From the NCBI RefSeq assembly GCF_036507355.1, contig NZ_AP027877.1: a stretch of 64,000 nt of DNA. One strand, written 5' to 3'. A program made the position numbers and the translations under genes. Of the stretch, positions 3,809-19,120 are shown piece by piece (within the stretch, counting starts at the first letter, position 1; every line of letters starts with the position of its first letter). The notes below the pieces were generated by a model. That model was given only the letters and a program-made list of their open reading frames with translations, had not been told where the DNA came from and did not search any database. This DNA is from Escherichia coli. Its GTDB lineage: Bacteria > Pseudomonadota > Gammaproteobacteria > Enterobacterales > Enterobacteriaceae.

Positions 3809-4145
3809 ATTTCTGTTGTCTATAATGTATTCATAATTTTTACTGGGATACAGTGCACATAAAATCCCAATTGCGGTAGGACGATAACTGGATCAGGTGG
3901 AGGCACTTACGCAAGAATTGATAGTATTAATTTGCATAGAGCAACGCGAAGTTATTTATAAATTAACTGATATAGAGTACTAGATGTAATCCGAACCGGT
4001 TATGATTCGTCACCAATTTTGCAAGAGGCTGGGTAGGTAAGCTATTGGATACCGTAGGTAGCAAAAATATAGAAGGAGGGGAAGAATTGCTAAACTCGAG
4101 CATTCACTTAAATCTGAGTTATTTATTGTTAAGATATAATACACT

Positions 4146-4409
4146 TTGAATAATAGAGGCTATATGACAACGAAAATAAGCAAAGATGATAAACATCTGC
4201 TTGATCCTTATTTAAAATGGCTTGCAAACAAGAAGCTAATGGTTGCCTTCTGGTTGGTGCTAATGATATGTGGTTGCATATATGCATATATAGAAAATGA
4301 TTGGTCACTTCTTCCCCGATTCGGATGTTTAGGCATAATGATTGGCACATTGCTTACTCTTTCTCCGCTTTTTGCAGAAGGTATCTACCTATCAAGGCGA
4401 GAAGCATGA
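4146..4409 (+). CDS. Hypothetical small membrane protein (87 aa, two predicted TM helices); stop codon supplied by the IS end
   Basis: ORF with hydrophobic segments LMVAFWLVLMICGCIYAYI and GCLGIMIGTLLTLSPLF; TGA at 4407-4409 is the first 3 nt of the IS, so the native 3' end may be lost. Confidence 0.35.
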   Translation: MNNRGYMTTKISKDDKHLLDPYLKWLANKKLMVAFWLVLMICGCIYAYIENDWSLLPRFGCLGIMIGTLLTLSPLFAEGIYLSRREA

Positions 4410-4424
4410 ATCGCCACGGATAAT

Positions 4425-5237
4425 CTAGACACTTCCGAGCCGTTGATAATACTGGTTTTCATATTCTGTCGGTGACATCTGATCGCTGGAACCATGCCGA
4501 CGCTTACTGTTATAAAACATTTCGATGTAATCAAAAATATCGCTGCGGGCTTCTTCCCGCGTTCCGTAGATCTTTTTCTTTATCCGTTCGCGTTTCAACA
4601 ACTGGAAAAAGCTTTCTGCAACCGCATTATCATGGCAGTTACCGCGACGGCTCATGCTGCCATCCAGGCCGTGTGATTTCAGGAACGACTGCCACTCATG
4701 GCTTGTGTACTGACTGCCCTGATCCGAATGAACCAGCACCTGTTTTTGGGGATTACGGCGCCATACAGCCATCAGCAGTGCGTTCAGGACAATGTCCTTT
4801 GTCATCCGGGATTGCATGGACCAGCCGATAATTTTGCGTGAGAACAGATCAACAACCACGGCAAGATACAGCCAGCCTTCGTGGGTCCTGATGTAGGTTA
4901 TGTCCGTTACCCAACGCTTATCCGGAGCATCCGGATTGAACTGTCGCTGGAGCCTGTTGGGCGACACGATACTGGCCTCGCCTTTACGTGCCCGCGGGCT
5001 CCGGTATCCGACCTGAGCCTTTATCCCGACACGTTTCATCAGTCGCCAGACTCTGTTCACTCCGCACTGTTGCCCGCTGTCCCGCAGATCCAGATGGATT
5101 TTGCGATAACCATAGACGCATCCCGATTCCAGCCAGAACTGTTTAATCTGCCCTGTCAGCCTCAGGTCTGCCTGATGGCGTTGTGAATGCGGCTGCTGAA
5201 GCCAGGCGTAAAAACCACTGGGATGAACATCCAGCAC
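4425..5237 (-). CDS. IS3-family transposase OrfB (DDE integrase domain); expressed as OrfAB fusion by -1 frameshift
   Basis: 270-aa ORF from first Met; motifs DITYIRTHEGWLYLAVVVDLFSRKIIGW and HSDQGSQYTS; frame stays open upstream of the Met. Confidence 0.8.
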   Translation of the reverse strand: MLDVHPSGFYAWLQQPHSQRHQADLRLTGQIKQFWLESGCVYGYRKIHLDLRDSGQQCGVNRVWRLMKRVGIKAQVGYRSPRARKGEASIVSPNRLQRQFNPDAPDKRWVTDITYIRTHEGWLYLAVVVDLFSRKIIGWSMQSRMTKDIVLNALLMAVWRRNPQKQVLVHSDQGSQYTSHEWQSFLKSHGLDGSMSRRGNCHDNAVAESFFQLLKRERIKKKIYGTREEARSDIFDYIEMFYNSKRRHGSSDQMSPTEYENQYYQRLGSV

Positions 5238-5293
5238 CCGACAGAGCAGGCGAACAGGCCAGCAACAGGTGTTGTCACGGATAAAGGCGTACC

Positions 5294-5578
5294 TCAGTCG
5301 GACAGCTTTGCGAAGTACGCCGCGGCTTTTTTTAATATGTCCCGTTCGTCGGTAACCCGCTTCAGCTCTTTCTGGAGACGGCGGATCTCGGCCTGAGCAT
5401 CTGACTGTTCTTTATTAGCGGAAGAATCCGGACCGTACTTCTTTATCCAGGCGTAAAGGCTGTGGGTGGTGATATCGAGACGTGTTGCAACGCTGGCAAC
5501 AGAATAACCGCGATCAACAACCTGTTTGACTGCTTCAATTTTAAACTCTTCGGGATAACGCTTACCGCTCATGGGCAC
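5294..5578 (-). CDS. IS3-family transposase OrfA (HTH plus leucine zipper)
   Basis: 94-aa ORF MPMSGKRYPEEFKIEAVKQV...; ends near an A7G slippery run. Confidence 0.8.
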   Translation of the reverse strand: MPMSGKRYPEEFKIEAVKQVVDRGYSVASVATRLDITTHSLYAWIKKYGPDSSANKEQSDAQAEIRRLQKELKRVTDERDILKKAAAYFAKLSD

Positions 5579-6839: not shown

Positions 6840-7130
6840 ATGGCTGATTTGAGAAAAGCAGCGCGTGGTCGGGAATGCCAGGTAAGAATCCCTGGCGTAT
6901 GTAATAGCAATTCTGAAACGTCTGTACTGGCACATATCCGGCTGGCTGGATTGTGCGGTACCGGTATCAAACCGCCAGACCTGATTGCCACCATCGCATG
7001 TTCTGCCTATCACGACGAAATCGACCGCCGCACACATTTTGTCGATGCTGAGTATGCAAAAGAATGCGCGCTGGAAGGTATGGCGAGAACACAGGTTATC
7101 TGGCTGAAAGAGGGGGTTATTAAGGCGTGA
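6840..7130 (+). CDS. YbcO-like (DUF1364) phage protein
   Basis: [22 protein letters not shown]...[13 protein letters not shown], matches recalled DLP12 YbcO; upstream of rusA as in DLP12. Confidence 0.6.
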
Positions 7131-7489
7131 ATACTTACAGCATCACATTACCCTGGCCTCCGAGCAATAATCGCTATTACCGCCATAATCGCGGGCGCAC
7201 GCACATCAGCGCAGAGGGGCAGGCATACCGCGATAACGTCGCCCGAATCATTAAAAACGCAATGCTGGATATCGGCCTGGCTATTCCTGTGAAAATCCGC
7301 ATTGAGTGTCACATGCCGGATCGCCGTCGCCGTGACCTGGATAATCTGCAAAAAGCTGCTTTTGACGCACTTACCAAAGCAGGTTTCTGGCTGGATGATG
7401 CTCAGGTCGTTGATTACCGCGTTGTGAAGATGCCGGTTGTCAAAGGTGGAAAGCTGGAACTGACCATCACTGAACTGGGAGATGAATGA
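7127..7489 (+). CDS. rusA: Holliday junction resolvase RusA
   Basis: 120 aa, [26 protein letters not shown]..., near-identical to recalled RusA. Confidence 0.9.
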
Positions 7490-7626
7490 TGTTTGAGTTT
7501 TATACGGCAGAACTTCTTCGCCACCGCTGGATGCGCCTGCGCTTATATCGTTTCCCCGGTTCTGTTTTGACCGATTACCGAATACTGAGGAATTACGCCA
7601 AAACCCTGACAGGAGCAGGAGTATGA
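7489..7626 (+). CDS. ylcG: YlcG-like small phage protein (45 aa)
   Basis: ATG overlapping rusA stop (ATGA coupling); [24 protein letters not shown]...; below the ORF-track size cutoff, read by hand. Confidence 0.5.
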   Translation: MFEFYTAELLRHRWMRLRLYRFPGSVLTDYRILRNYAKTLTGAGV

Positions 7627-7696
7627 AGTCAGAGATAACAATCAACTAATACTGTTTTGTTGATTTTTGCTTGTAATTGGCGTTCTGGTCTGATTT

Positions 7697-8089
7697 TTGT
7701 GGAGTAAGTTGATGCGTGATATTCAGATGGTTCTTGAGCGTTGGGGAGCGTGGGCGGCTAATAATCATGAAGATGTGACCTGGTCGTCCATTGCCGCCGG
7801 TTTTAAGGGATTAATTCCTTCAAAAGTAAAATCTCGCCCACAATGTTGTGACGATGACGCGATGATCATTTGCGGGTGCATGGCCCGTCTGAAAAAGAAC
7901 AACAGCGATTTGCATGATTTATTGGTGGACTATTATGTCGGCGGCATGACTTTTATGGCGCTTGCACGTAAGCATGGGCGATCTGATTGTTGGGTTGGCA
8001 GGATGCTCCAGAAAGCTGAGGGCGTAGTGGAGGGTATGCTGATGGTGTTGGATCTCCGATTGGAGATGGATGCTGATTGTTCGAAATAA
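7697..8089 (+). CDS. Late-gene antitermination protein Q (QuuD / phage-82-type)
   Basis: 130-aa ORF (true start may be Met at 7712); Cys-rich zinc-binding region [16 protein letters not shown]; followed by terminator tR'. Confidence 0.8.
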
Positions 8090-8187
8090 TTAAAGGAAAA
8101 GTTGCTGTCTGATTGTCATTAGTCTAACATTTTAAATGTTGGAATCGCAACGTAGTTATTATCATATAACAGCTTGTTTCCTGATTT
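8090..8187 (+). promoter_or_regulatory. Probable late promoter pR' / qut region
   Basis: Position immediately 3' of Q and 5' of a strong terminator, as in lambdoid late control regions; promoter hexamers not confidently assigned. Confidence 0.3.
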
Positions 8188-8217
8188 AGCCAGCCTCCCC
8201 AAAGGCTGGTTTTTTTC
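8188..8217 (+). terminator. Rho-independent terminator (tR'-like)
   Basis: AGCCAGCCT-CCCCAA-AGGCTGGT hairpin followed by TTTTTTT. Confidence 0.55.
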
Positions 8218-8244
8218 TAATAAGTATTATTTCGGGTAGGGATT

Positions 8245-8769
8245 TTATTGTTTAACCCATAATAATTCATTGACATTGAATCCCAACTTTTGAGCGGTTC
8301 GCACATAGTCTGCTTTTACTTTATCTGGAATAGTTGGGGTCCTTGCCAGAATCCATAGGTATTCTCTGTTCGGACCACTGACAAGAGCATACTTATACTC
8401 ATCATCCAGTTTGATTACATTATAGCCACCATAGAAGGGGCCAAAAAACGAAACCTTCAATGCTGCAGTTTTAGTATCTCCAGTAAAGTATGCTTTACCT
8501 TCGCTCTCGCTCCATTTATTTTTCGTTGGATCGTATCCACGGTTAAGTACACGAATCCCTCCGTCGTTCCGTTTTCCATAAGTAGCGCTGACCTGTTCCA
8601 GATCACGTTCGAACCGGTTCTCGAGGCGAGCTATTTCATACCATTTTCCGAGGTAGCGGTTGGCGTCAAAATTTGTAATCGGCTGCACACCTTTAGGTGG
8701 TGTCGGGGCCTTACATGCTATAAGAGTGAAAGAGAGTGCAATGCCAGTCAACACAGGCCATAACTTCAT
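8245..8769 (-). CDS. Outer-membrane lipocalin, Blc homologue (lipoprotein)
   Basis: 174 aa; lipobox LIAC; NFDANRYLGKWYEIARLENRFERDLEQV...KVSFFGPFYGGYNVI closely parallels E. coli Blc; opposite strand to phage late genes. Confidence 0.85.
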   Translation of the reverse strand: MKLWPVLTGIALSFTLIACKAPTPPKGVQPITNFDANRYLGKWYEIARLENRFERDLEQVSATYGKRNDGGIRVLNRGYDPTKNKWSESEGKAYFTGDTKTAALKVSFFGPFYGGYNVIKLDDEYKYALVSGPNREYLWILARTPTIPDKVKADYVRTAQKLGFNVNELLWVKQ

Positions 8770-8961
8770 AATAAATCCTGTACTTTTGATAGTTGAGAGT
8801 AAGTATGAAAGATAGATGATTACGACCGATCACTTAAAGAACTTTCATACTATATTAGGAATAGTCCATAACAGAAAAATTGTCAGTGATGACGCCAGAA
8901 AGGCAATTTATTCCGTGCACTACACAGTTTATGTGTTAATGAATTAGTCAAGGGGGAGAAT

Positions 8962-9921
8962 ATGATAAAAAAACCTGTGATTGGAATCAGCGGTTGTTTG
9001 GCCGGTTCTGCTGTTCGTTTTGATGGTGGTCACAAAAGAGCTGACTTTTTAATGGACAAATTAGTGGAATGGGTAACATTCAGACCAGTATGTCCGGAAA
9101 TGGCTATAGGGCTGCCAGTTCCGCGTCCTGCTCTACGTCTTGTGCGCTCGACGCAAGGAAATATACGGATGTGTTTCAGCCACGACCAGAATGAGGATGT
9201 GACAGAGAGAATGACAGAGTTTAGTCGTTCTTATATGGACAAATTAAAGGATGTATCGGGGTTTGTGGTTTGTGCTAAATCTCCCAGCTGTGGCATGGAG
9301 CGCGTGCGTGTCTATGATGAAAATGGTAATCGAGGTCGTAAAGATGGAGTGGGACTATTTACGAGTACTTTGATGGAAAAGTTTTCCTGGCTACCGGTTG
9401 AAGAGGATGGGCGATTACATGATCCAGTGCTTCGTGAGAATTTTGTTGAAAGAGTTTTTGCTTTGCATGAGCTCAATCACCTTTACAAGGAGAAATTATC
9501 AAGAAGAGAGTTATTAGCTTTTCATAGTCGTTATAAGCTTCAGTTGTTGGCGCATAGTCAGGCAGGCTATAAAGATATGGGACCATTTGTGGCTGCAATA
9601 CACGAGTGGGCGGACCTTGAATCATACTTTGAGGTGTATCGTGATAAGCTGATGGCGATTCTCAGAAAACCTGCATCACGTAAAAATCACACGAATGTGC
9701 TGATGCATATACAGGGGTATTTTAGTAACTACTTAAGTACACGCCAGCGTAAAGAGTTGAGCGAGGTTATACTTAACTATCGTTCTGGCACATTACCTCT
9801 TCTTGCGCCGTTGACTCTGCTGAAGCATTATCTGGGTGAGTATCCTAATGATTACTTGCTTACACAGAATTACTTCGATCCCTATCCGGACGAACTGGCT
9901 CTAAGACTGATGGTAAATTAA
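8962..9921 (+). CDS. DUF523 (TudS-like thiouracil desulfidase, Fe-S) fused to DUF1722 (YbgA-like) protein
   Basis: 319 aa; N-terminal GISGCLAGSAVRFDGG, PVCPEMAIGLPVPR and SPSCGMERV cysteine motifs typical of DUF523; C-terminal LRENFVERVFALHEL...YKLQLLAHSQAGY typical of DUF1722. Confidence 0.55.
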   Translation: MIKKPVIGISGCLAGSAVRFDGGHKRADFLMDKLVEWVTFRPVCPEMAIGLPVPRPALRLVRSTQGNIRMCFSHDQNEDVTERMTEFSRSYMDKLKDVSGFVVCAKSPSCGMERVRVYDENGNRGRKDGVGLFTSTLMEKFSWLPVEEDGRLHDPVLRENFVERVFALHELNHLYKEKLSRRELLAFHSRYKLQLLAHSQAGYKDMGPFVAAIHEWADLESYFEVYRDKLMAILRKPASRKNHTNVLMHIQGYFSNYLSTRQRKELSEVILNYRSGTLPLLAPLTLLKHYLGEYPNDYLLTQNYFDPYPDELALRLMVN

Positions 9922-10263
9922 TTGTATGCGATATCATCCAAAAGGATGAGTTCCTGCATGCAGGATATTTACAATCGTAAAAACTACACTATGATACCCA
10001 GAGTGTCAGTTTGTATAAAAACTCTGTTTACGCTGAAGAAACAATTGAGATGCAACTTAAAGTTGGTAAACATGCCAGTCAAAATATATAATATTATGAT
10101 TCCACGCAGCTATATATAATATAACAGATTGGTTTAATAATTTGTCTTTGTGAGTTAAATACATAATTTTATACTTGTGATGCAATGAAATTTTCCTTAT
10201 TGTTGAACTGGCGAATATTGATTTTCCACCTATACTTACCTGGTGTAACCCCAATGATATCAG

Positions 10264-11004
10264 GTGGATAATATGCCATACATATGTTCTATCATTTTGG
10301 TGTTGAACTCGTTTGATGTCCGAATTGGTAAAGAAGATATTTTGTTTAAAAAAGGAAGTGCTGTTCTCATTGATTACAATTTAAAAGATTTTTTTTCATC
10401 AAATATAGATCATGTAATGATCGTAGATGTTGAAGAGAAAACAGTTAATGATTTCTTTAAAAGCAACACACTCTCACCTTTTTCTGTAAGAAGGTTTTAT
10501 CCGGCATACTTGATGGTGGAATGTGAAGATTTTTCATTGTTAAAGAACTTGATTGCATGCTTGAATTGTGATGGCAGAACTGTGGATTTTGTTAGAAATC
10601 AAATATCACTTGCATGTCTTGCTATCTTATCTTCAGAGAAAATAGTGCAAAGTTTTTTATTTGGATGTCTTAATAGTTTAGGAAGTAAAGTTAAGGCTAT
10701 TATTCACACGGATATATCTGCAGCATGGAGACTTTGTGATATATCTTCAAGACTGTATCTGAGTGAAAGTCTGTTAAAAAGAAAATTAAAGCACGAAGGC
10801 TTATCATTTAGTAAGTTAATTCTTGAAGAGCGAATGGTGATGGCGGAAAGGTTATTAAGCTACAATTTATATTCTGTTGGAAAAGTTGCTGAGATATGCG
10901 GTTATGAAAACACGTCATATTTTGTGAGTGTTTTCAGAAGATATTTTGGTGTTCCTCCCCATCAATATTCATCAAGATTTTTTTTAGAAAAAGACATGAT
11001 GTAA
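10264..11004 (+). CDS. AraC-family transcriptional regulator, AppY/EnvY-like
   Basis: 246 aa; C-terminal double HTH (WRLCDISSRLYLSESLLKRKLK...VGKVAEICGYENTSYFVSVFRRYFGVPP); very AT-rich gene and upstream region. Confidence 0.8.
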   Translation: MDNMPYICSIILVLNSFDVRIGKEDILFKKGSAVLIDYNLKDFFSSNIDHVMIVDVEEKTVNDFFKSNTLSPFSVRRFYPAYLMVECEDFSLLKNLIACLNCDGRTVDFVRNQISLACLAILSSEKIVQSFLFGCLNSLGSKVKAIIHTDISAAWRLCDISSRLYLSESLLKRKLKHEGLSFSKLILEERMVMAERLLSYNLYSVGKVAEICGYENTSYFVSVFRRYFGVPPHQYSSRFFLEKDMM

Positions 11005-11065
11005 CATGATGCGTTTTAATGATTTTGTAATTTTCGTATTTGATAATTGTATGATGCTTTCAGCT

Positions 11066-11097
11066 ACGCCAGAATAATCGCTGGCGTTTTTCTTTTT
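11066..11097 (+). terminator. Rho-independent terminator after the AraC-like gene
   Basis: ACGCCAG-AATAATCG-CTGGCGT hairpin followed by TTTTTCTTTTT. Confidence 0.4.
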
Positions 11098-11192
11098 GAA
11101 TAGATGTTCAAGCCTTACGCTAATGTAACTTCTATACCTTTCCTCTTCGTTCCGAACCGTGTACACCATCCGTTATTTGCGGAGGTGAGGCT

Positions 11193-11408
11193 ATGAAATC
11201 TATGGATAAGTTAACAACGGGCATTGCCTACGGCACCTCCGCAGGCAGTGCTGGCTACTGGTTTTTACAGTTGCTCGATAAAGTCACGCCCTCACAGTGG
11301 GCAGCAATAGGTGTGCTGGGTAGCCTGGTATTTGGCCTGCTGACGTACCTGACAAACCTTTATTTCAAGATTAAAGAAGATAAGCGCAAGGCTGCGAGAG
11401 GTGAATAA
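11193..11408 (+). CDS. Class II holin (phage-21 S21-type pinholin)
   Basis: 71 aa, [26 protein letters not shown]..., two TM segments, matches recalled S21/EssD. Confidence 0.85.
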
Positions 11409-11905
11409 TGCCTCCATCATTACGAAAAGCCGTTGCTGCTGCTATTGGTGGCGGAGCAATTGCTATAGCATCAGTGTTAATCACTGGCCCAAGTGGTAAC
11501 GATGGTCTGGAAGGTGTCAGCTACATACCATACAAAGATATTGTTGGTGTATGGACTGTATGTCACGGGCATACAGGAAAAGACATCATGCTCGGTAAAA
11601 CGTATACCAAAGCAGAATGCAAAGCCCTCCTGAATAAAGACCTTGCCACGGTCGCCAGACAAATTAACCCGTACATAAAAGTTGATATACCGGAAACAAC
11701 GCGCGGCGCTCTTTACTTGTTCGTTTACAACGTGGGCGCTGGCAATTTCAGAACATCGACGCTTCTTCGCAAAATAAACCAGGGCGATATCAAAGGCGCA
11801 TGTGATCAGCTACGTCGCTGGACATATGCTGGCGGTAAGCAATGGAAAGGGCTGATGACTCGCCGTGAGATTGAGCGTGAAGTCTGTTTGTGGGGGCAAC
11901 AATGA
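11408..11905 (+). CDS. SAR endolysin (phage-21 R-type lysozyme)
   Basis: 165 aa; N-terminal Gly/Ala-rich signal-anchor-release segment [18 protein letters not shown]; lysozyme catalytic region. Confidence 0.88.
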
Positions 11906-12345
11906 GTAGAGTAACCGCGATTATCTCCGCTCTGGTTATCAGCATCATCGTCTGCCTGTCATGGGCTGTTAATCATTACCGTGATAACGCCATGACCTAC
12001 AAAGAACAGCGCGACAAAGCCACATCCATCATCGCTGACATGCAGAAGCGTCAACATGATGTAGCAGAACTCGACGCCAGATACACAAAGGAGCTTGCTG
12101 ATGCTAACGCGACTATCGAAAGTCTTCGTGCTGATGTTTCTGCTGGTCGTAAGTGGCTGCACGTCAAAGCAGTCTGTCCGGACAAGCATAAAACCACCGC
12201 CGCCTCCGGCGTGGATGATGCTTCCAGCCCCAGACTTACTGACACCGCTCAACGGGATTATTTCGTTCTCAGAGAGCGCATCGAAACCATAACTAACCAA
12301 TTGAATGGCCTGCAAGAATATGTGAGATCACAGTGTTCATATTAG
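11902..12345 (+). CDS. i-spanin Rz
   Basis: N-terminal TM helix then coiled-coil periplasmic domain; overlaps endolysin stop. Confidence 0.8.
12101..12292 (+). CDS. o-spanin Rz1 (lipoprotein) embedded in +1 frame of Rz
   Basis: Lipobox LVVSGC followed by Pro-rich stretch KPPPPPAW; entirely inside Rz. Confidence 0.65.
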
Positions 12346-12758
12346 AAAAGTCTTATCATAAGATTTTTGTATATGGATGCATTATGTCTCAATACGCTCA
12401 CGTTGCTTTAATCGCTTATCATTTGGTGGCTGATAGCTCAATGACTCCTCGTGATGCATGGGATGCAGCTATCGCAGAGGTTACAGAAAGCGAATCGTCA
12501 AGAAAGAAGATATGCCCAAGGGCAACATTTCTCGCCCTGGCGGATAGCGGTTACCTGAAGAATGTAAAACCACTGCATGGGGAGAAAAAGGGCGGTAAGT
12601 TGTACCAAAGGGCAATTGAAGTTGCGAATCTGATTCTTGATTTACCCGGAATCAGTAAAGCTGAATTGGTTGATAAAACTGGTTACAAAGACAGGCAAGG
12701 GTCTTATGACCTGATTCTCGCTCTGTATCATCATGAGCAACTCCAGCGATCGGAATAA
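12333..12758 (+). CDS. YbcV-like hypothetical phage protein
   Basis: 141-aa ORF (start possibly Met at 12386) at the position of ybcV in DLP12; no recognisable motif. Confidence 0.4.
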
Positions 12759-12875
12759 TTATCCCAGCATCAGTGTCAAAAATAGGCAGTGATACGCTAT
12801 TTTCCTGAAAATACTTTACTAACATTTTATGAGAATTATCCTAGTAATGTGTTTATTTAAAAGGAGTTTGGGTTT

Positions 12876-13079
12876 ATGAAAATTCTCTGGGTCATCAGTC
12901 TTTTGTGTAGTGCTATTGGATTTATTGAAGGAATCCTCGGGGTTTTCGGTGCTCAGAGTGCTCCACAACAGGCTGCAGGTGCAGCAATGGGAGTAGCATG
13001 GGCAGTTATTCCATATTGTATTTGTCGTGCTATCCAACAATTGCGCCCTCGAGAAGTCATTATTAAAAAGGAAGAATGA
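12876..13079 (+). CDS. YbcW-like small membrane protein (67 aa)
   Basis: ORF with RBS-like GGAG upstream; two hydrophobic segments. Confidence 0.4.
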   Translation: MKILWVISLLCSAIGFIEGILGVFGAQSAPQQAAGAAMGVAWAVIPYCICRAIQQLRPREVIIKKEE

Positions 13080-13144
13080 CCAGATCTTATCCGGTGTTTT
13101 TTCTGTCTAAGCCTCGCGTCGCGGGGCTTTTTATTGGAGCCAGC

Positions 13145-13495
13145 ATGCCACCACGAACACCAAAAGCCTGCCGTGTTCGCGGCTGCCGCCATACCACAAC
13201 TGACCCGTCAGGCTATTGCGAAAGCCACAAAAGTGAAGGCTGGAAGCAATACAAGCCGGGCCAGTCCAGACACCAGCGCGGTTATGGTTCGAAATGGGAT
13301 GTTATCCGTGAACGTGTGCTCAAGCGTGACAAAGGACTGTGTCAGTTATGTCTGCGTGGTGGTGTGGTACGTGAGGCGAAAACCGTTGACCACATCATCC
13401 CTAAAGCGCATGGCGGCACTGATGCCGACAGCAATCTGCAGAGCCTGTGCTGGCCGTGTCATAAGGCGAAGACGGCCCGTGAACGGTTGAAGTAA
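13145..13495 (+). CDS. HNH endonuclease (packaging-associated)
   Basis: CxxC...DHIIPKAHGGTDADSNLQSLCWPCH HNH motif; directly upstream of terminase genes; start taken at MPPRTPKA. Confidence 0.8.
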   Translation: MPPRTPKACRVRGCRHTTTDPSGYCESHKSEGWKQYKPGQSRHQRGYGSKWDVIRERVLKRDKGLCQLCLRGGVVREAKTVDHIIPKAHGGTDADSNLQSLCWPCHKAKTARERLK

Positions 13496-13611
13496 GAACC
13501 AGTTCCCACTGCCAGAGGGGAGGGGCGGGTCAAATCCCTGTGACCTGACGTCTTCCGGACTGCCCGCCCCATCGTTTTTTTATACCCGCGAAAAATGAAA
13601 TTTAACCAGGA

Positions 13612-14115
13612 GTGCCGCATATGGCTGGAACGGCGGGGCGTTCCGGGCGTCGCCCCAAGCCAACGGCGCGCAAGGCGCTGGCCGGAAACCCCGGCAAGCG
13701 AGCCCTGAATAAAGATGAACCTGTTTTTACGCCCATCAAAGGTGTTGAGCCACCGGAGTGGTTCGCTGAAGAAGATCTCCCTCTCGCCACGATCATGTGG
13801 CAACTGACAACCAAAGAACTCTGCGGTCAGGGCCTGCTGTGCGTGACTGACCTGGCGGTACTTGAGCGGTGGTGTGTGGCCTATGAGTTCTGGCGACGTG
13901 CCGTGAAAAATATTGCCAGACAGGGCAACACCATCACCGGTGCAATGGGCGGTATGGTCAAAAATCCTGAGCTGACCGCCAAAAAAGAACAGGAGTCCGA
14001 GATGAGCAGTACGGGGGCAATGCTCGGACTCGACCCCAGCAGCCGCCAGCGTCTGATTGGCCTGGCGGGGCAGAAGAAAGCCACTAACCCGTTTCTGAAA
14101 ATTATCGAATCATGA
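13612..14115 (+). CDS. Terminase small subunit (P27 family)
   Basis: 167-aa ORF preceding and overlapping terL; terminase small-subunit-like sequence. Confidence 0.7.
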
Positions 14116-15845
14116 GCCGGAAATCTTACCCCAACGTAAATGCTGCCAATCAGTATGCCCGGGATGTCGTTCGCGGAAAGATTGTGGCCTGCCAGTTTGT
14201 GATTCAGGCCTGCCAGCGCCATCTTGATGACCTGATGGCGGAAAAAAGTAAGTCGTTTCGTTACCGCTTCGACAAGGACCTGGCTGAACGGGCCGCCAAA
14301 TTTATTCAGCTGTTGCCGCATACCAAGGGTGAGTGGGCATTCAAACGGATGCCCATCACGCTGGAGCCGTGGCAGCTCTTTGTGATCTGCTGTGCGTTTG
14401 GCTGGGTCAATAAAGGTACCCGGCTGCGCCGCTTCCGGGAGGTGTATACCGAAATCCCCCGTAAGAACGGCAAATCGGCAATCTCTGCCGGTGTTGCCCT
14501 GTATTGTTTTGCCTGTGATAACGAGTTTGGCGCGGAAGTGTATTCCGGTGCCACGACAGAGAAACAGGCGTGGGAAGTCTTTCGCCCGGCGCGACTGATG
14601 TGTAAACGCACACCCATGCTGACGGAAGCGTTCGGGATTGAGGTTAACGCCTCAAACATGAACCGTCCGGAGGATGGCGCGCGGTTTGAACCGCTGATCG
14701 GTAACCCCGGTGATGGTTCATCACCCCACTGTGCTGTGGTGGATGAATATCACGAGCATGCCACAGATGCACTTTACACCACGATGCTTACCGGGATGGG
14801 CGCGCGACGTCAGCCACTGATGTGGGCCATTACTACTGCCGGGTACAACATTGAGGGGCCGTGCTACGACAAGCGGCGGGAAGTCATCGAGATGCTCAAC
14901 GGCTCGGTGCCCAACGATGAACTGTTCGGGATCATCTATACCGTTGATGAAGGTGACGACTGGACCGACCCGCAGGTGCTGGAAAAAGCCAATCCAAATA
15001 TTGGCGTGTCGGTTTATCGCGAATTTTTGTTAAGTCAGCAGCAGCGTGCGAAAAATAACGCCCGTCTGGCAAACGTCTTTAAAACAAAACACCTCAATAT
15101 CTGGGTGTCGGCGCGTTCGGCGTATTTCAACCTGGTGAGCTGGCAGAGCTGCGAGGATAAATCACTGACCCTTGAGCAGTTCGAGGGGCAGCCGTGCATT
15201 CTGGCCTTTGACCTGGCGCGCAAGCTGGATATGAACAGCATGGCGCGACTTTATACCCGCGAGATTGACGGTAAAACGCATTACTACAGTGTGGCCCCGC
15301 GTTTCTGGGTACCGTATGACACGGTGTACAGCGTCGAGAAAAATGAAGATCGCCGGACAGCCGAACGCTTTCAGAAATGGGTGGAAATGGGCGTTCTGAC
15401 CGTTACCGATGGTGCGGAGGTGGATTATCGCTACATCCTCGAGGAGGCCAAAGCGGCGAACAAAATCAGCCCGGTCAGTGAGTCACCCATCGACCCCTTC
15501 GGGGCGACCGGGTTGTCACATGACCTTGCTGATGAAGACCTGAACCCCATCACTATCATTCAGAACTACACCAACATGTCCGACCCGATGAAAGAGCTGG
15601 AAGCGGCAATTGAATCGGGGCGCTTTCATCATGATGGCAATCCCATCATGACCTGGTGTATCGGCAACGTGGTCGGCAAAACCATTCCGGGTAACGATGA
15701 TGTGGTGAAGCCCGTCAAAGAGCAGGCGGAAAACAAAATCGATGGTGCAGTTGCGCTGATTATGGCGGTTGGCAGAGCCATGCTGTACGAGAAAGAAGAC
15801 ACGCTGTCTGACCACATTGAGTCCTATGGGATCCGCTCGCTTTAA
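14112..15845 (+). CDS. Terminase large subunit
   Basis: 577 aa; ATPase and nuclease regions typical of TerL. Confidence 0.9.
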
Positions 15846-15856
15846 CTGAGGTAATT

Positions 15857-16039
15857 ATGATCATGCTGATTCTCGCGCCTCTGGTGGGCGTGCTGGGGGC
15901 GCTTTTGCTGGCGTATGGTGCCTGGCTGATTTATCCCCCGGCGGGGTTTGTTGTTGCCGGGGCGTTGTGCCTGTTCTGGTCGTGGCTGGTGGCGCGATAT
16001 CTCGACCGTACACAGTCGTCTGTCGGCGGAGGTAAATAG
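15857..16039 (+). CDS. Small hydrophobic phage protein (60 aa)
   Basis: ORF between terL and portal, mostly hydrophobic. Confidence 0.3.
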
Positions 16040-17280
16040 TGTTCTTTTCGGGATTATTTCAACGAAAAAGTGACGCACCGGTGACCACGCCAGCAGAGCT
16101 GGCGGATGCTATCGGGTTGTCCTACGACACCTATACCGGAAAGCAGATCAGCAGCCAGCGGGCCATGCGACTGACGGCGGTTTTTTCCTGTGTCAGGGTG
16201 CTGGCGGAGTCGGTCGGGATGTTGCCCTGCAACCTGTATCACCTGAACGGCAGCCTGAAGCAGAGAGCCACTGGCGAACGTCTGCATAAGCTGATCTCCA
16301 CGCATCCCAATGGCTATATGACGCCGCAGGAGTTCTGGGAGCTGGTGGTCACCTGTCTGTGCCTGCGGGGAAACTTTTACGCCTACAAAGTGAAAGCATT
16401 TGGCGAAGTGGCTGAACTGCTGCCCGTCGATCCCGGCTGTGTGGTACCGAAGCTTAACAGTAGCTGGGAGCCGATCTATCAGGTCACATTCCCGGATGGC
16501 TCCACGGATGTACTGAGCCAGGAGGATATCTGGCATGTGCGCACGCTGACGCTGGACGGACTGGTGGGGCTGAATCCCATCGCCTATGCCCGCGAGGCAA
16601 TATCGCTGGCAGCTGCGACCGAAGAGCACGGGGCCAGACTGTTCAGCAATGGCGCGGTGACGTCGGGTGTGTTGCGTACAGAGCAGACGCTGTCAGATCA
16701 GGCTTATGAGCGCCTGAAGAAAGATTTTGAGGAGCGTCACACCGGGCTTGGCAATGCTCACCGCCCGATGATCCTTGAGATGGGGCTGGACTGGAAGTCG
16801 ATGGCGCTGAACGCCGAGGACAGCCAGTTCCTGGAAACCCGCAAGTTTCAGCTTGAAGAAATCTGTCGTCTGTTCCGGGTGCCGTTGCACATGGTGCAGA
16901 ACACCGATCGCGCCACCTTCAACAATATCGAAGAGCTGGGGCTGGGATTTATCAACTATTCACTGGTGCCGTATCTGACCCGCATCGAACAGCGGATCAA
17001 CACCGGACTGGTACGAAAAAGTAAGCAGGGCGTTTATTACGCCAAATTTAACGCCGGGGCGTTACTGCGCGGGGATATGAAGTCCCGTTTTGAAGCCTAC
17101 GCCACCGGGATCAACTGGGGAATTTACTCTCCCAATGACTGCCGCGACCTGGAAGATATGAATCCGCGTCCCGGTGGTGATGTCTATCTCACACCGATGA
17201 ACATGACCACGAAACCCTCCGATGGCAGTAAGGCCGGTAAGCAGAAGGATAACGCCAATGCAGACGAAACAACGTCTTGA
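16039..17280 (+). CDS. Portal protein (HK97 family)
   Basis: 413 aa, position after terL, portal-like sequence. Confidence 0.85.
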   Translation: MFFSGLFQRKSDAPVTTPAELADAIGLSYDTYTGKQISSQRAMRLTAVFSCVRVLAESVGMLPCNLYHLNGSLKQRATGERLHKLISTHPNGYMTPQEFWELVVTCLCLRGNFYAYKVKAFGEVAELLPVDPGCVVPKLNSSWEPIYQVTFPDGSTDVLSQEDIWHVRTLTLDGLVGLNPIAYAREAISLAAATEEHGARLFSNGAVTSGVLRTEQTLSDQAYERLKKDFEERHTGLGNAHRPMILEMGLDWKSMALNAEDSQFLETRKFQLEEICRLFRVPLHMVQNTDRATFNNIEELGLGFINYSLVPYLTRIEQRINTGLVRKSKQGVYYAKFNAGALLRGDMKSRFEAYATGINWGIYSPNDCRDLEDMNPRPGGDVYLTPMNMTTKPSDGSKAGKQKDNANADETTS

Positions 17281-17908
17281 TGTACTGCTGAGTCTGAAAT
17301 CTGTCAGTGACTCCGGTGAGTTTGAAGGGTATGGCTCCGTCTTTGGTGTAAAGGACAGCCACGATGATGTGGTGATGTCCGGGGCATTTGCTGCTTCCCT
17401 GCGGGCGTGGAGTGACAGAAAAGCGTTACCTGCGCTGCTCTGGCAGCACCGCATGGATGAACCCATCGGTGTTTACACCGAAATGAAGGAAGACGATGTC
17501 GGGCTTTACGTCAGGGGACGGTTGCTTATTGATGATGATCCCCTCGCAAAACGCGCACATGCACACATGAAGGCCGGTTCGTTAACCGGCCTTTCTATTG
17601 GGTACGTCCTGAAAGACTGGGAATACGACCGGAGCAAAGAAGCCTTTCTGCTGAAAGAAATCGACCTCTGGGAAGTCAGCCTGGTGACGTTCCCGTCTAA
17701 CGACGAGGCGCGGATCAGCGACGTCAAGAACGCACTGGCCCGCGGGGAAATCCCCGAACAGAAAAAAATCGAAAGAGTCCTGCGTGATGTCGGACTCTCC
17801 CGTACCCAGGCCAAAGCATTCATGGCCGGGGGCTATGGCGCACTGTCCCTGCGCGACGCTGAGGATGTGGGCTCTGCACTGAATGCACTGAAAAATCTGA
17901 ACTTCTAA
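17258..17908 (+). CDS. Prohead protease (HK97 family)
   Basis: ORF following portal; start taken at MQTKQRLDVLL. Confidence 0.7.
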   Translation: MQTKQRLDVLLSLKSVSDSGEFEGYGSVFGVKDSHDDVVMSGAFAASLRAWSDRKALPALLWQHRMDEPIGVYTEMKEDDVGLYVRGRLLIDDDPLAKRAHAHMKAGSLTGLSIGYVLKDWEYDRSKEAFLLKEIDLWEVSLVTFPSNDEARISDVKNALARGEIPEQKKIERVLRDVGLSRTQAKAFMAGGYGALSLRDAEDVGSALNALKNLNF

Positions 17909-17922
17909 TCAGGAGAAATACG

Positions 17923-18582
17923 ATGGCGGTTGATATTAAAGATGTCGAACAGGTCGCGCAGGAGCTGCAGCAGAAGTTTGACGACTTCAAAGCAAAGAAC
18001 GACAAGCGCGTGGATGCGATTGAGCAGGAAAAAGGCAAGCTTGCCGGGCAGGTGGAAACCCTGAACGGGAAACTCAGCGAGCTGGAAAATCTCAAAAGCG
18101 ACCTTGAAAAAGAGCTGTTTGAGCTGAAACGTCCGGCAACGGCGTATGTCGAAAGCGGGGTGCTGCGCATTCAGCGTGATGTCACCACGTACAGGAAAAA
18201 TGCTTACGGGGTTGCGGATAACAGCTACCTCGACAGCGAGACGCTGCATACCAGTGCGTATGTACTGCGCAAACTGAAATCCGTCATTACCAGTAAGTAC
18301 GGGCGTCACAAGCTTGCCAGCGACGGTACCCGCTTTGGTCCCGGTCAGGCGATTGTCACCCCGGCGGTGATCAAAGGGGAACTGCTGGCAACCTACCGTC
18401 AGCTTGGGCGTGCGGGGATCGTGGAAAACTACGAACTGTTTAAGCAGTACCTGGTTGTGGAGCGTGATGCCAGCGATCCGAACCGCCTGAACACGCTGTT
18501 CCCGCCTGACTATGTTAACCAGTTGCGTGTCTTTGCCGTGGTTAACCAGTTCCGTCTTCAGTATTCAGAGGAGTCTGCATAA
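17923..18582 (+). CDS. Phage structural protein; N-terminal coiled-coil resembling the delta domain of an HK97-like major capsid protein but far too short (219 aa); probable deletion remnant
   Basis: N-terminus AQELQQKFDDFKAKNDKRVDAIEQEKGKLAGQVETLNGKL is delta-domain-like; a complete capsid gene would be about 400 codons. Confidence 0.35.
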   Translation: MAVDIKDVEQVAQELQQKFDDFKAKNDKRVDAIEQEKGKLAGQVETLNGKLSELENLKSDLEKELFELKRPATAYVESGVLRIQRDVTTYRKNAYGVADNSYLDSETLHTSAYVLRKLKSVITSKYGRHKLASDGTRFGPGQAIVTPAVIKGELLATYRQLGRAGIVENYELFKQYLVVERDASDPNRLNTLFPPDYVNQLRVFAVVNQFRLQYSEESA

Positions 18583-18938
18583 TGGCCCGTATCGGGGGAA
18601 CCTGTTATTTCAAAATTGACGGTCAGCAGCTATCGCTGACCGGCGGCATTGAGGTGCCCATGAACAGGACGGTCAATGATGACATCATCGGCCTGGACGG
18701 TTCAGTGGACCGCAAAGAAACTCACCGTGCGCCTTATGTCAAAGGGACCTTCAAGGTGCCGAAGAATTTTCCGGTGAGCAAAATCACCTCGTCTGATGAG
18801 ATGACCATCACTGCCGAGCTGGCAAACGGTCAGGTCTATGTACTGTCGTCTGCCTGGCTGCACGGCGAAGCGAACCATAATGCCGAAGAAGGCACGGTCG
18901 ATCTTGAGTTCCACGGTGAAGAAGGGGATTACCAGTAA
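18582..18938 (+). CDS. Hypothetical phage structural protein (118 aa)
   Basis: ORF coupled to flanking genes; no secure assignment. Confidence 0.3.
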   Translation: MARIGGTCYFKIDGQQLSLTGGIEVPMNRTVNDDIIGLDGSVDRKETHRAPYVKGTFKVPKNFPVSKITSSDEMTITAELANGQVYVLSSAWLHGEANHNAEEGTVDLEFHGEEGDYQ

Positions 18939-19120
18939 TGAAAGAGCTTGAGTTAAAGAAACCGATTACCGCTCATGGCGAGACACTCTCCGTACTGGAG
19001 TTTGATGAGCCCACCGGGAAAGATGTCCGCGAGCTGGGATATCCCTACCAGATGAATCAGGATGAGTCCGTCAGACTTCTGGCGCATGTGGTATCGAAAT
19101 ACATCGTGCGGCTGCCCTGA
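18938..19120 (+). CDS. Hypothetical phage protein (60 aa)
   Basis: ORF with ATGA overlap to next gene. Confidence 0.3.

Follow-up and report, generated by a model that had tools for sequence, protein, structure and literature searches.

The island that separates the late-gene antiterminator gene Q from the holin gene S in a prophage of Escherichia coli (contig NZ_AP027877.1, assembly GCF_036507355.1) is probably a lysogenic-conversion ("moron") cassette, consisting of a captured pair of genes, blc and rudS, and a phage-restricted regulator of the AraC family. We refer to the analyzed 64-kb stretch of this contig as the window, and to its positions 8090–11192 as the island. The ORF listing gives three intact open reading frames (ORFs) in the island, and the products proposed for them in an earlier, sequence-only reading, a Blc-like lipocalin on the opposite strand, a DUF523-DUF1722 protein, and an AraC regulator, all placed between Q and the lysis cassette, are present and intact, with their domains confirmed. 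The features of the island and its borders are given below in window coordinates.

7712–8089, plus strand: Q, late-gene antiterminator, 125 amino acids (aa) from its ATG (the ORF program starts at the TTG at 7697)
8090–8187, plus strand: presumed pR'/qut region (late promoter and Q-loading site), assigned by position, from the Q stop to the first plus-strand terminator
8188–8218, plus strand: tR'-like intrinsic terminator, a 9-bp G+C-rich stem followed by T7
8245–8769, minus strand: blc, predicted outer-membrane lipocalin lipoprotein, 174 aa (NCBIfam NF007786, phrog_2809)
8770–8961, no strand assigned: divergent blc/rudS intergenic region, 33.9% GC, presumed site of the promoters of both genes
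8962–9921, plus strand: rudS, TudS-DUF1722 fusion, 319 aa (PF04463 and PF08349, phrog_3275)
9922–10272, plus strand: AT-rich spacer, 31.9% GC, with a stable hairpin at 9922–9963 (folding)
10273–11004, plus strand: AraC/XylS-family regulator of the YdeO/GadX/PatE type, 243 aa (HTH_18/HTH_AraC, phrog_1450); the RefSeq ATG at 10273 is used, the ORF program giving a GTG at 10264
11066–11097, plus strand: intrinsic terminator at the boundary of cargo and holin (terminator scan)
11193–12345, plus strand: lysis cassette, with holin S (11193–11408), endolysin R (11408–11905), and spanin Rz (11890–12345)

A search for the flanks of the island, with rusA through Rz (7127–12345) as the query, showed that most of the E. 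coli genomes found encode rusA, ylcG, and quuD on one side and essD, rrrD, and rzpD on the other, with a porin gene (nmpC/ompC-like) between them. Homology of the window to one such porin-type prophage ends at 8071, 18 bp before the stop codon of Q, and restarts at 11182, 11 bp before the start of S; the final 18 bp of Q already lie within the swapped segment, and the pR'/tR' region and the terminator ahead of S are represented by different alleles in the island and porin types. As the same flanks enclose a porin in DLP12-type prophages, the slot is exchangeable, and the island is exchangeable cargo in the Q–S slot of quuD/essD-type lambdoid phages, in line with the earlier suggestion that it sits where DLP12 carries nmpC. 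The nmpC of DLP12 and the stx of Shiga toxin (Stx) phages occupy this slot too, with the rusA-ylcG-quuD and essD-rrrD-rzpD flanks and a terminator before S; the difference lies in the content of the cargo, and in the whole segment from the end of Q to the start of S, including pR' and tR', being a distinct allele. The strand of the cargo varies, the porin being encoded on the minus strand like the blc of the island.

The cassette is widely distributed: a match was found in 1155 of 5426 complete E. coli genomes, 991 of which contain at least 80% of it, as well as in 12 phage records, including the isolated phages 1H12 and IdasGreatGrand, and at 36 IMG/VR loci. Wherever the DNA was long enough or an annotation was fetched, the order was Q, blc (minus strand), rudS, the AraC gene, S, and R. 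In 1H12, IdasGreatGrand, E. coli Yu5 (with a Mu-like sheath), JNE25-001, a Qin-like prophage, and the IMG/VR loci the cassette likewise has Q on one side and a holin gene on the other, but the surroundings differ: the backbone upstream of the island contains either rusA-ylcG or ydfU (Qin-like), and the tails of the carriers range from that of a siphovirus in 1H12 to the Mu-like sheath of Yu5. These differing backbones and tails around an unchanged core indicate that Q, the island, and S travel as one recombination module between phage backbones. The copy in the window is 99.3–99.9% identical to those of phage IdasGreatGrand and Yu5. Its Q belongs to phrog_79 ("anti-termination protein Q-like", E 1.3e-51), is 97% (96.8%) identical to the Q of 1H12 at the amino acid level, and is annotated as "antiterminator Q family protein" in Yu5, 1H12, and IdasGreatGrand; on the other side of the island, the holin matches phrog_9876 and phrog_20, the endolysin matches endolysin families, and the annotation of Yu5 names essD, rrrD, and a lysis protein.

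The island also differs from the neighboring phage genes in its base composition, as the sequence-only reading had noted from its richness in AT: its GC content is 38.1%, versus 47.2% in the left flank and 53.2% in 11193–21000 (49.3% for the whole window). This is close to the lowest value among all 3103-bp segments of the window (minimum 0.379 at 8051), with 0.2% of the segments as low; locally, GC falls to 30% within the island.

The lipocalin scores 314.5 bits against NCBIfam NF007786, above the cut-off of 267, and matches phrog_2809 over its full length. Full-length matches were also found to the E. coli Blc structures 3mbt, 1qwd, and 2aco in PDB at E values of 1e-67 to 1e-68 (3mbt, 3.7e-68). 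The protein contains the lipobox LIAC (MKLWPVLTGIALSFTLIAC, followed by K), with Cys19 as the lipobox cysteine and Lys at position +2; there is no Asp at +2, and hence no inner-membrane retention signal. By homology, Blc would be an outer-membrane lipocalin.

Scanning one genome per species gave 41 loci with a RudS 66–76% identical. In 21 of these blc is divergent from rudS, and 18 of the 21 have a MerR/MlrA-type regulator between the two genes. The rudS-linked Blc proteins are 68–81% identical to the phage Blc over the 21 loci (78–81% in most Enterobacter, Leclercia, and Lelliottia loci), whereas the phage Blc and the Blc of K-12 share just 58% of their amino acids; together with the shared divergent order, this closer relationship to the rudS-linked Blc proteins argues that the two genes were captured together. 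The usual order in Enterobacter, Leclercia, Lelliottia, and Pseudenterobacter is blc (minus strand), the MerR/MlrA-type regulator, a hydroxyisourate-hydrolase-like gene, and rudS; in Citrobacter sedlakii and Citrobacter JGM124, blc and rudS adjoin directly, as in the phage. The flanks of these loci are ordinary chromosomal genes and not phage genes, and the AraC gene, Q, S, and R are absent from all 41 species-representative loci, so that the trio was not seen as a conserved chromosomal block outside phages. The blc-rudS pair is thus best read as one chromosomal piece taken up from an enterobacterium, with loss of the MerR regulator. The divergent layout is that of the Enterobacter cloacae-type chromosomal locus, blc opposite merR-(hiuH)-rudS, and a related chromosomal rudS locus is known from Salmonella, in which ORF319 (RudS_ST) is under a MerR-family regulator; these chromosomal loci differ from the island in having a MerR/MlrA-type regulator and often the hydroxyisourate-hydrolase-like gene, no AraC gene, and nonphage flanks. 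The description of the island as three unrelated genes therefore does not hold for blc and rudS, a divergent pair at 21 of 41 chromosomal loci, and does hold for the AraC gene, which is separate. Across three diverged alleles of the island, the ratio of nonsynonymous to synonymous substitution (dN/dS) is 0.07–0.19 for blc, 0.10–0.28 for rudS, and 0.21–0.27 for the AraC gene; all three genes are under purifying selection.

A third chromosomal context of rudS was observed in Citrobacter braakii ATCC 51113, in which one of two rudS copies closes an operon with a cyclopropane-fatty-acid-synthase-like gene and ORFs without an NCBIfam match; the other copy lies between GGDEF/EAL genes.

The fusion protein encoded by the second gene has PF04463 (2-thiouracil desulfurase, formerly DUF523) at residues 7–149 (E 1.6e-39) and PF08349 (DUF1722) at residues 192–309 (E 2.2e-40), and matches phrog_3275 over its full length (E 1e-227). 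Cys12, Cys44, and Cys110 are present, with the CPE and SPSC(G) motifs; the numbering is that of RudS_vir in Table 1 of PMC11417400, where these three cysteines hold a [4Fe-4S] cluster. The protein of the window is 93.4% identical to RudS_vir, which is gp66 of phage 1H12, and is accordingly predicted to be RudS, a [4Fe-4S] tRNA 4-thiouridine desulfidase; the designation as a DUF523-DUF1722 protein was correct as to the domains, but these no longer mark a protein of unknown function. RudS is described as a TudS-DUF1722 [4Fe-4S] desulfidase that converts 4-thiouridine of tRNA to uridine, and RudS genes expressed in E. coli cut tRNA 4-thiouridine (s4U) 4.7- to 26-fold, with RudS_vir at the weak end (PMC11417400). 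The growth delay induced by ultraviolet A (UVA) was shortened from ca. 105 to ca. 60 minutes by a Pseudomonas RudS, the only RudS for which this is given there. E. coli itself is said to be without RudS and to have only the DUF1722 stub YbgA, and all viral RudS genes are placed in the Siphoviridae (PMC11417400).

A second phage rudS, 73% identical to that of the window at the amino acid level, was observed in six IMG/VR contigs (L086–L091, with rudS at 4001–4960 of each locus) and in Citrobacter sp. MGH106. Neither blc nor an AraC gene accompanies it; it occupies the nin region of a lambdoid prophage by itself and points the same way as the early-right operon, the order being cI, cro, cII, replication genes, a dnaC-like gene, rudS, a ydfU-like gene, and Q. 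This nin-region rudS is a second, independent capture by phages.

The regulator has the HTH_18/HTH_AraC domains of an AraC-type double helix-turn-helix protein. The best NCBIfam model is YdeO (NF007407), which it matches over residues 4–239 with 127.3 bits; as the cut-off is 348 bits, an identification as YdeO was rejected, and the protein is YdeO-like. Its nearest solved structure is the DNA-binding domain of GadX. Its identity to ECs_0287 of prophage Sp1 in the Sakai strain is 51% overall, rising to 72% in the DNA-binding half and dropping to 40% in the N-terminal one. PatE and PsrB activate gadE and hdeAB (PMC10877973), and for the island regulator our best guess is a similar role, most likely the activation of stress genes silenced by H-NS, such as these. 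With PatE (Z0321), PsrA (Z1789), and PsrB (Z2104) of E. coli O157:H7, prophage-encoded AraC-like activators of the GAD/hdeAB acid-resistance genes (PMC10877973), it has in common that all are borne by prophages, are about 245 aa long, and are very AT-rich (ECs_0287 has 35% GC); it forms a different clade, and its place in the Q–S slot beside blc-rudS differs from that of ECs_0287, at the end of a prophage.

The AraC gene has a GC content of 31.8% (26.6% at third codon positions), much more AT-rich than blc and rudS. Between the window and the Qin-type allele, the synonymous divergence (dS) is about 0.025 for blc and rudS and 0.34 for the AraC gene, and in a search of 5.8 billion proteins all relatives of the AraC protein with a named source were from E. 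coli. The contrast in dS, the low GC, and the restriction of named relatives to E. coli point to a history separate from that of blc-rudS; the gene is evidently a separate addition, found only in phages and prophages of E. coli. A recombination breakpoint between the blc-rudS and AraC alleles must lie at about the spacer 9922–10272.

It should be noted that the cassette is already known as an object and is not a new kind of system: it is contained in annotated public phage genomes, its blc has been called a moron, and RudS_vir has been characterized. Phage 1H12 and the "Lambda_ev/2E9"-type infant-gut coliphages (Jouyvirus; Mathieu et al. 2020, PMC6969025) have the same order of Q, blc (minus strand), rudS (plus strand), AraC gene (plus strand), and holin, with identities of 1H12 to the window of 96.6% for Blc, 93.4% for RudS, 82.7% for the AraC protein, and 96.8% for Q. 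That study counts blc among the morons, with an occurrence of more than 50% in 19 infant-gut lambda-like phages, and the RudS_vir tested biochemically by Jamontas et al. 2024 (PMC11417400) comes from the same cassette. Unlike that of 1H12, the copy in the window belongs to another allele lineage and lies within a defective prophage with a Mu-like-tail backbone. The parts of PMC6969025 and PMC11417400 that were searched contain no mention of the AraC gene or of a chromosomal origin of blc-rudS, and a literature search for links between LitR and lipocalins gave nothing usable.

By a terminator scan, the island has two intrinsic terminators of canonical form, each of them on the plus strand: a hairpin at 8188–8211 followed by T7, and one at 11066–11087 followed by a T-run. 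Since the count is not above that of shuffled sequences (2 versus 2.9 ± 1.9), it is their positions and not their number that carry meaning. The first lies about 100 bp past Q, the place expected for tR', folds with −19.1 kcal/mol (z −4.3) on the plus strand, and is conserved in 1H12 and in the Qin-type allele. The second, about 105 bp ahead of S, has a 7-bp stem with five G–C pairs followed by TTTTTCTTTTT, and is kept in all three island alleles; the porin-type allele has a different terminator at the same place. The earlier proposal that each gene has its own terminator-like hairpin applies cleanly to the AraC gene only: on the minus strand, 3' of blc, the hairpin at 8188 lacks a U-tract and is no more stable than its shuffled versions (z −0.6), and the stable hairpin 3' of rudS (9922–9963, −21 kcal/mol, z −4.5) is without a proper U-tract. 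Rfam found nothing near its gathering score over the island (best 28.6 bits versus 50, on the tR' hairpin itself), and ARAGORN found no tRNA in it, unlike the Q–S regions of Stx phages. The presumed pR'/qut region is conserved among the island-bearing phages and unlike the porin-type allele except for a short block, ATATAACAG.

This block, at 8160–8172 and 15–30 bp upstream of the tR'-like hairpin, is the sole clearly common sequence of the two otherwise unrelated Q–S intergenic alleles (compared with a porin-type locus, L047), and may be part of the late promoter or of the Q-utilization site. Repeats were considered as marks of the insertion ends and rejected, only short two-copy families being found; a 20-nt pair at 8160 and 10115, 85% identical, is at about the level of chance in 3.9 kb of AT-rich DNA, in which a rough estimate gives some four such pairs.

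If the island is a moron cassette, its working may be pictured as follows. In the chromosomal source state blc would have stood back-to-back with a (merR-hiuH-)rudS operon, and the phage copy would have been left without the MerR-type regulator. In a lysogen the cargo genes would run from their own promoters, and the terminator at 11066 would keep their transcription from entering the lysis genes. The late operon of lambda-type phages has a single promoter, pR', from which transcription stops at tR' unless Q is present; as S, R, and Rz lie beyond the island, the Q-modified polymerase can reach them only through it. When an intact phage is induced, polymerase from pR' would pass tR', blc in antisense, rudS, the AraC gene, and the 11066 terminator to reach S-R-Rz, and rudS and the AraC gene would probably be boosted together with the late genes, by analogy to lambda and to the Stx phages, in which stx is within the Q-dependent late transcript and under induction control. 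RudS would strip the sulfur from tRNA 4-thiouridine, an activity that core E. coli lacks.

The prophage of the window is not intact. It runs from emrK and emrY to an IS3-family insertion sequence (IS) element (4425–5578), and from there directly to ybcN, ninE, rusA, and Q, with no repressor, O, or P gene between the element and Q; the immunity and replication region has been replaced by the IS3-family element, and there are large deletions of head and tail genes. In the late region 17222–20907, a prohead protease ORF is directly followed by an ORF matching a C-terminal tail sheath fragment, and then by a tail tube gene, a baseplate wedge fragment, and fragments of tail-fibre and fibre-assembly genes; no major capsid gene is left in this region, and most tail genes are gone. 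The prophage is a decayed remnant with a Mu-like-tail backbone. With the early region gone, Q is without an early promoter in cis, and induction control of this copy could thus come solely from a further resident phage whose Q, of the same specificity, acts in trans; stand-alone expression or trans-activation by the Q of another phage are the sole modes applicable in the window. The proposal that read-through from pR' places the two plus-strand genes under induction control stands insofar as both probably lie in its path, given the lambda-type architecture, and fails in cis for this copy. At 35838–36650 there is a second 270-aa ORF with the same length and the same internal antisense ORF pattern as that of the IS3-family element, in opposite orientation, which suggests a second IS copy that could have mediated rearrangements.

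Several observations weigh against reading the island as a captured pair with a phage regulator under the control described. A donor of blc-rudS was not found among the sampled genomes, the best chromosomal matches being 76% for RudS and 81% for Blc, and the intergenic region 8770–8961, nearly identical among the three island alleles, gives no alignment to the intergenic DNA of the chromosomal blc/rudS loci of Citrobacter. Promoter-like matches across the island are at the level of shuffles (13 versus 12.0 ± 4.1), which includes the blc/rudS intergenic region, where they are not above chance; pR' itself was not pinpointed, no hexamer pair above chance being found in 8090–8187, and in the window Q has no early region upstream of it. 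Of the enzymes assayed in PMC11417400, RudS_vir desulfidated tRNA least, although it was well expressed. The regulator is below the YdeO equivalog cut-off (127 versus 348 bits), and with an N-terminal half just 40% identical to that of ECs_0287, its targets and signals may differ; ECs_0287 in turn is presumed to be PatE by position only, as the sole regulator-type gene annotated in the right-hand, nonphage-function part of Sp1/CP-933H.

The cassette might instead mainly serve the lytic cycle, with rudS in the late transcript erasing tRNA 4-thiouridine after induction by UV, so that UVA-induced s4U8–C13 cross-links, uncharged tRNA, and a stringent response throttling late protein synthesis are avoided. 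This would fit the co-orientation of rudS with the late operon, downstream of Q and pR', the independent lone rudS (73%) in the early-right orientation in the nin region of a Citrobacter lambdoid prophage, the textbook role of UV as the classic inducer of lambdoid prophages, and the shorter UVA growth delay on RudS expression (PMC11417400). We consider it unlikely, as many related phages do without the cassette and have a porin instead, blc is antisense to the late transcript, and the survival of an intact cassette in a dead prophage, together with the purifying selection, fits a benefit to the host at least equally well. Quite unlikely, in our view, is also the extension of this idea to a phage-controlled tRNA-editing device, in which rudS, expressed in the late transcript or in the early-right operon of the Citrobacter phages, would erase the UVA-sensitive 4-thiouridine at UV induction, and the AraC protein would replace the lost light-responsive MerR as the lysogenic control of blc and rudS.

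That the island is silent, H-NS-coated DNA hitch-hiking between two essential phage modules that recombine together might be argued from its low GC, down to 30%, from the movement of Q, island, and S as a block between phage backbones, and from the frequency with which IS elements land in it, IS-mediated loss of the AraC gene or of rudS being tolerated in prophages. Values of dN/dS of 0.07–0.28 in all three genes of three diverged alleles, ORFs that are intact even in a decayed prophage, and the enzymatic activity of the RudS orthologue (PMC11417400) make this very unlikely. Even less credit can be given to a role in phage exclusion, with Blc blocking superinfecting phages at the envelope in the manner of Cor, Llp, and Bor-type lipoproteins and the other two genes assisting. 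The alternative cargo of the slot is a porin, that is, a protein of the phage-receptor type, membrane proteins dominate among lambda morons (Mathieu et al., PMC6969025), and Blc has a lipobox and outer-membrane sorting features; PADLOC, however, gave no match for Blc, RudS, the AraC protein, or a 65-aa spacer ORF, Blc is an orthodox lipocalin above its NCBIfam cut-off, and a role in housekeeping or stress is favored by the finding of blc-rudS at nonphage chromosomal loci in many genera.

Read as a moron cassette, the island shows a phage that would have taken up a two-gene chromosomal stress locus and combined this locus with a regulator specific to phages, in the slot occupied by Shiga toxin in pathogens. 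About one-fifth of the complete E. coli genomes carry a prophage rudS, though the paper defining RudS states that E. coli lacks it (PMC11417400). Differences between strains in tRNA 4-thiouridine, in near-UV growth delay, and possibly in the regulation of acid resistance could therefore trace to prophage cargo.

Partial copies of the cassette with blc and rudS only, or with blc only, were considered as natural submodules and rejected, since those examined turned out to be IS-mediated deletions: IS1 removed the AraC gene in EC361, and IS3 cut rudS in NEBExpress. In NEBExpress, an E. coli B derivative (NZ_CP053599.1, 2846294–2848350), Q and an intact phage blc are followed by the first ca. 147 bp of rudS and then by IS3. 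Laboratory derivatives of E. coli B thus still keep a cut-down copy of the cassette, and BL21-type hosts, which have been used for RudS assays in the literature, carry a dead remnant of it. IS1, IS2, IS3, and IS5 are frequent inside the island in other E. coli genomes (hits H14–H16, H26–H29, H145, H153, H169, and H172), and the AT-rich stretch of the spacer (9922–10272) appears to be an insertion hot spot.

Two further blocks were observed elsewhere in the window. Between the spanin gene and the HNH/terminase genes (12333–13079), a DUF6979-type gene (phrog_5039) and a 67-aa hydrophobic ORF (phrog_12304) form another small block at a second typical cargo position. On the minus strand at 21196–23654, right after the tail-fibre remnants, an O-antigen acetyltransferase-like gene (phrog_3333, E 2e-86) lies beside a tyrosine integrase gene; the two resemble a module for serotype conversion at the end of the prophage.

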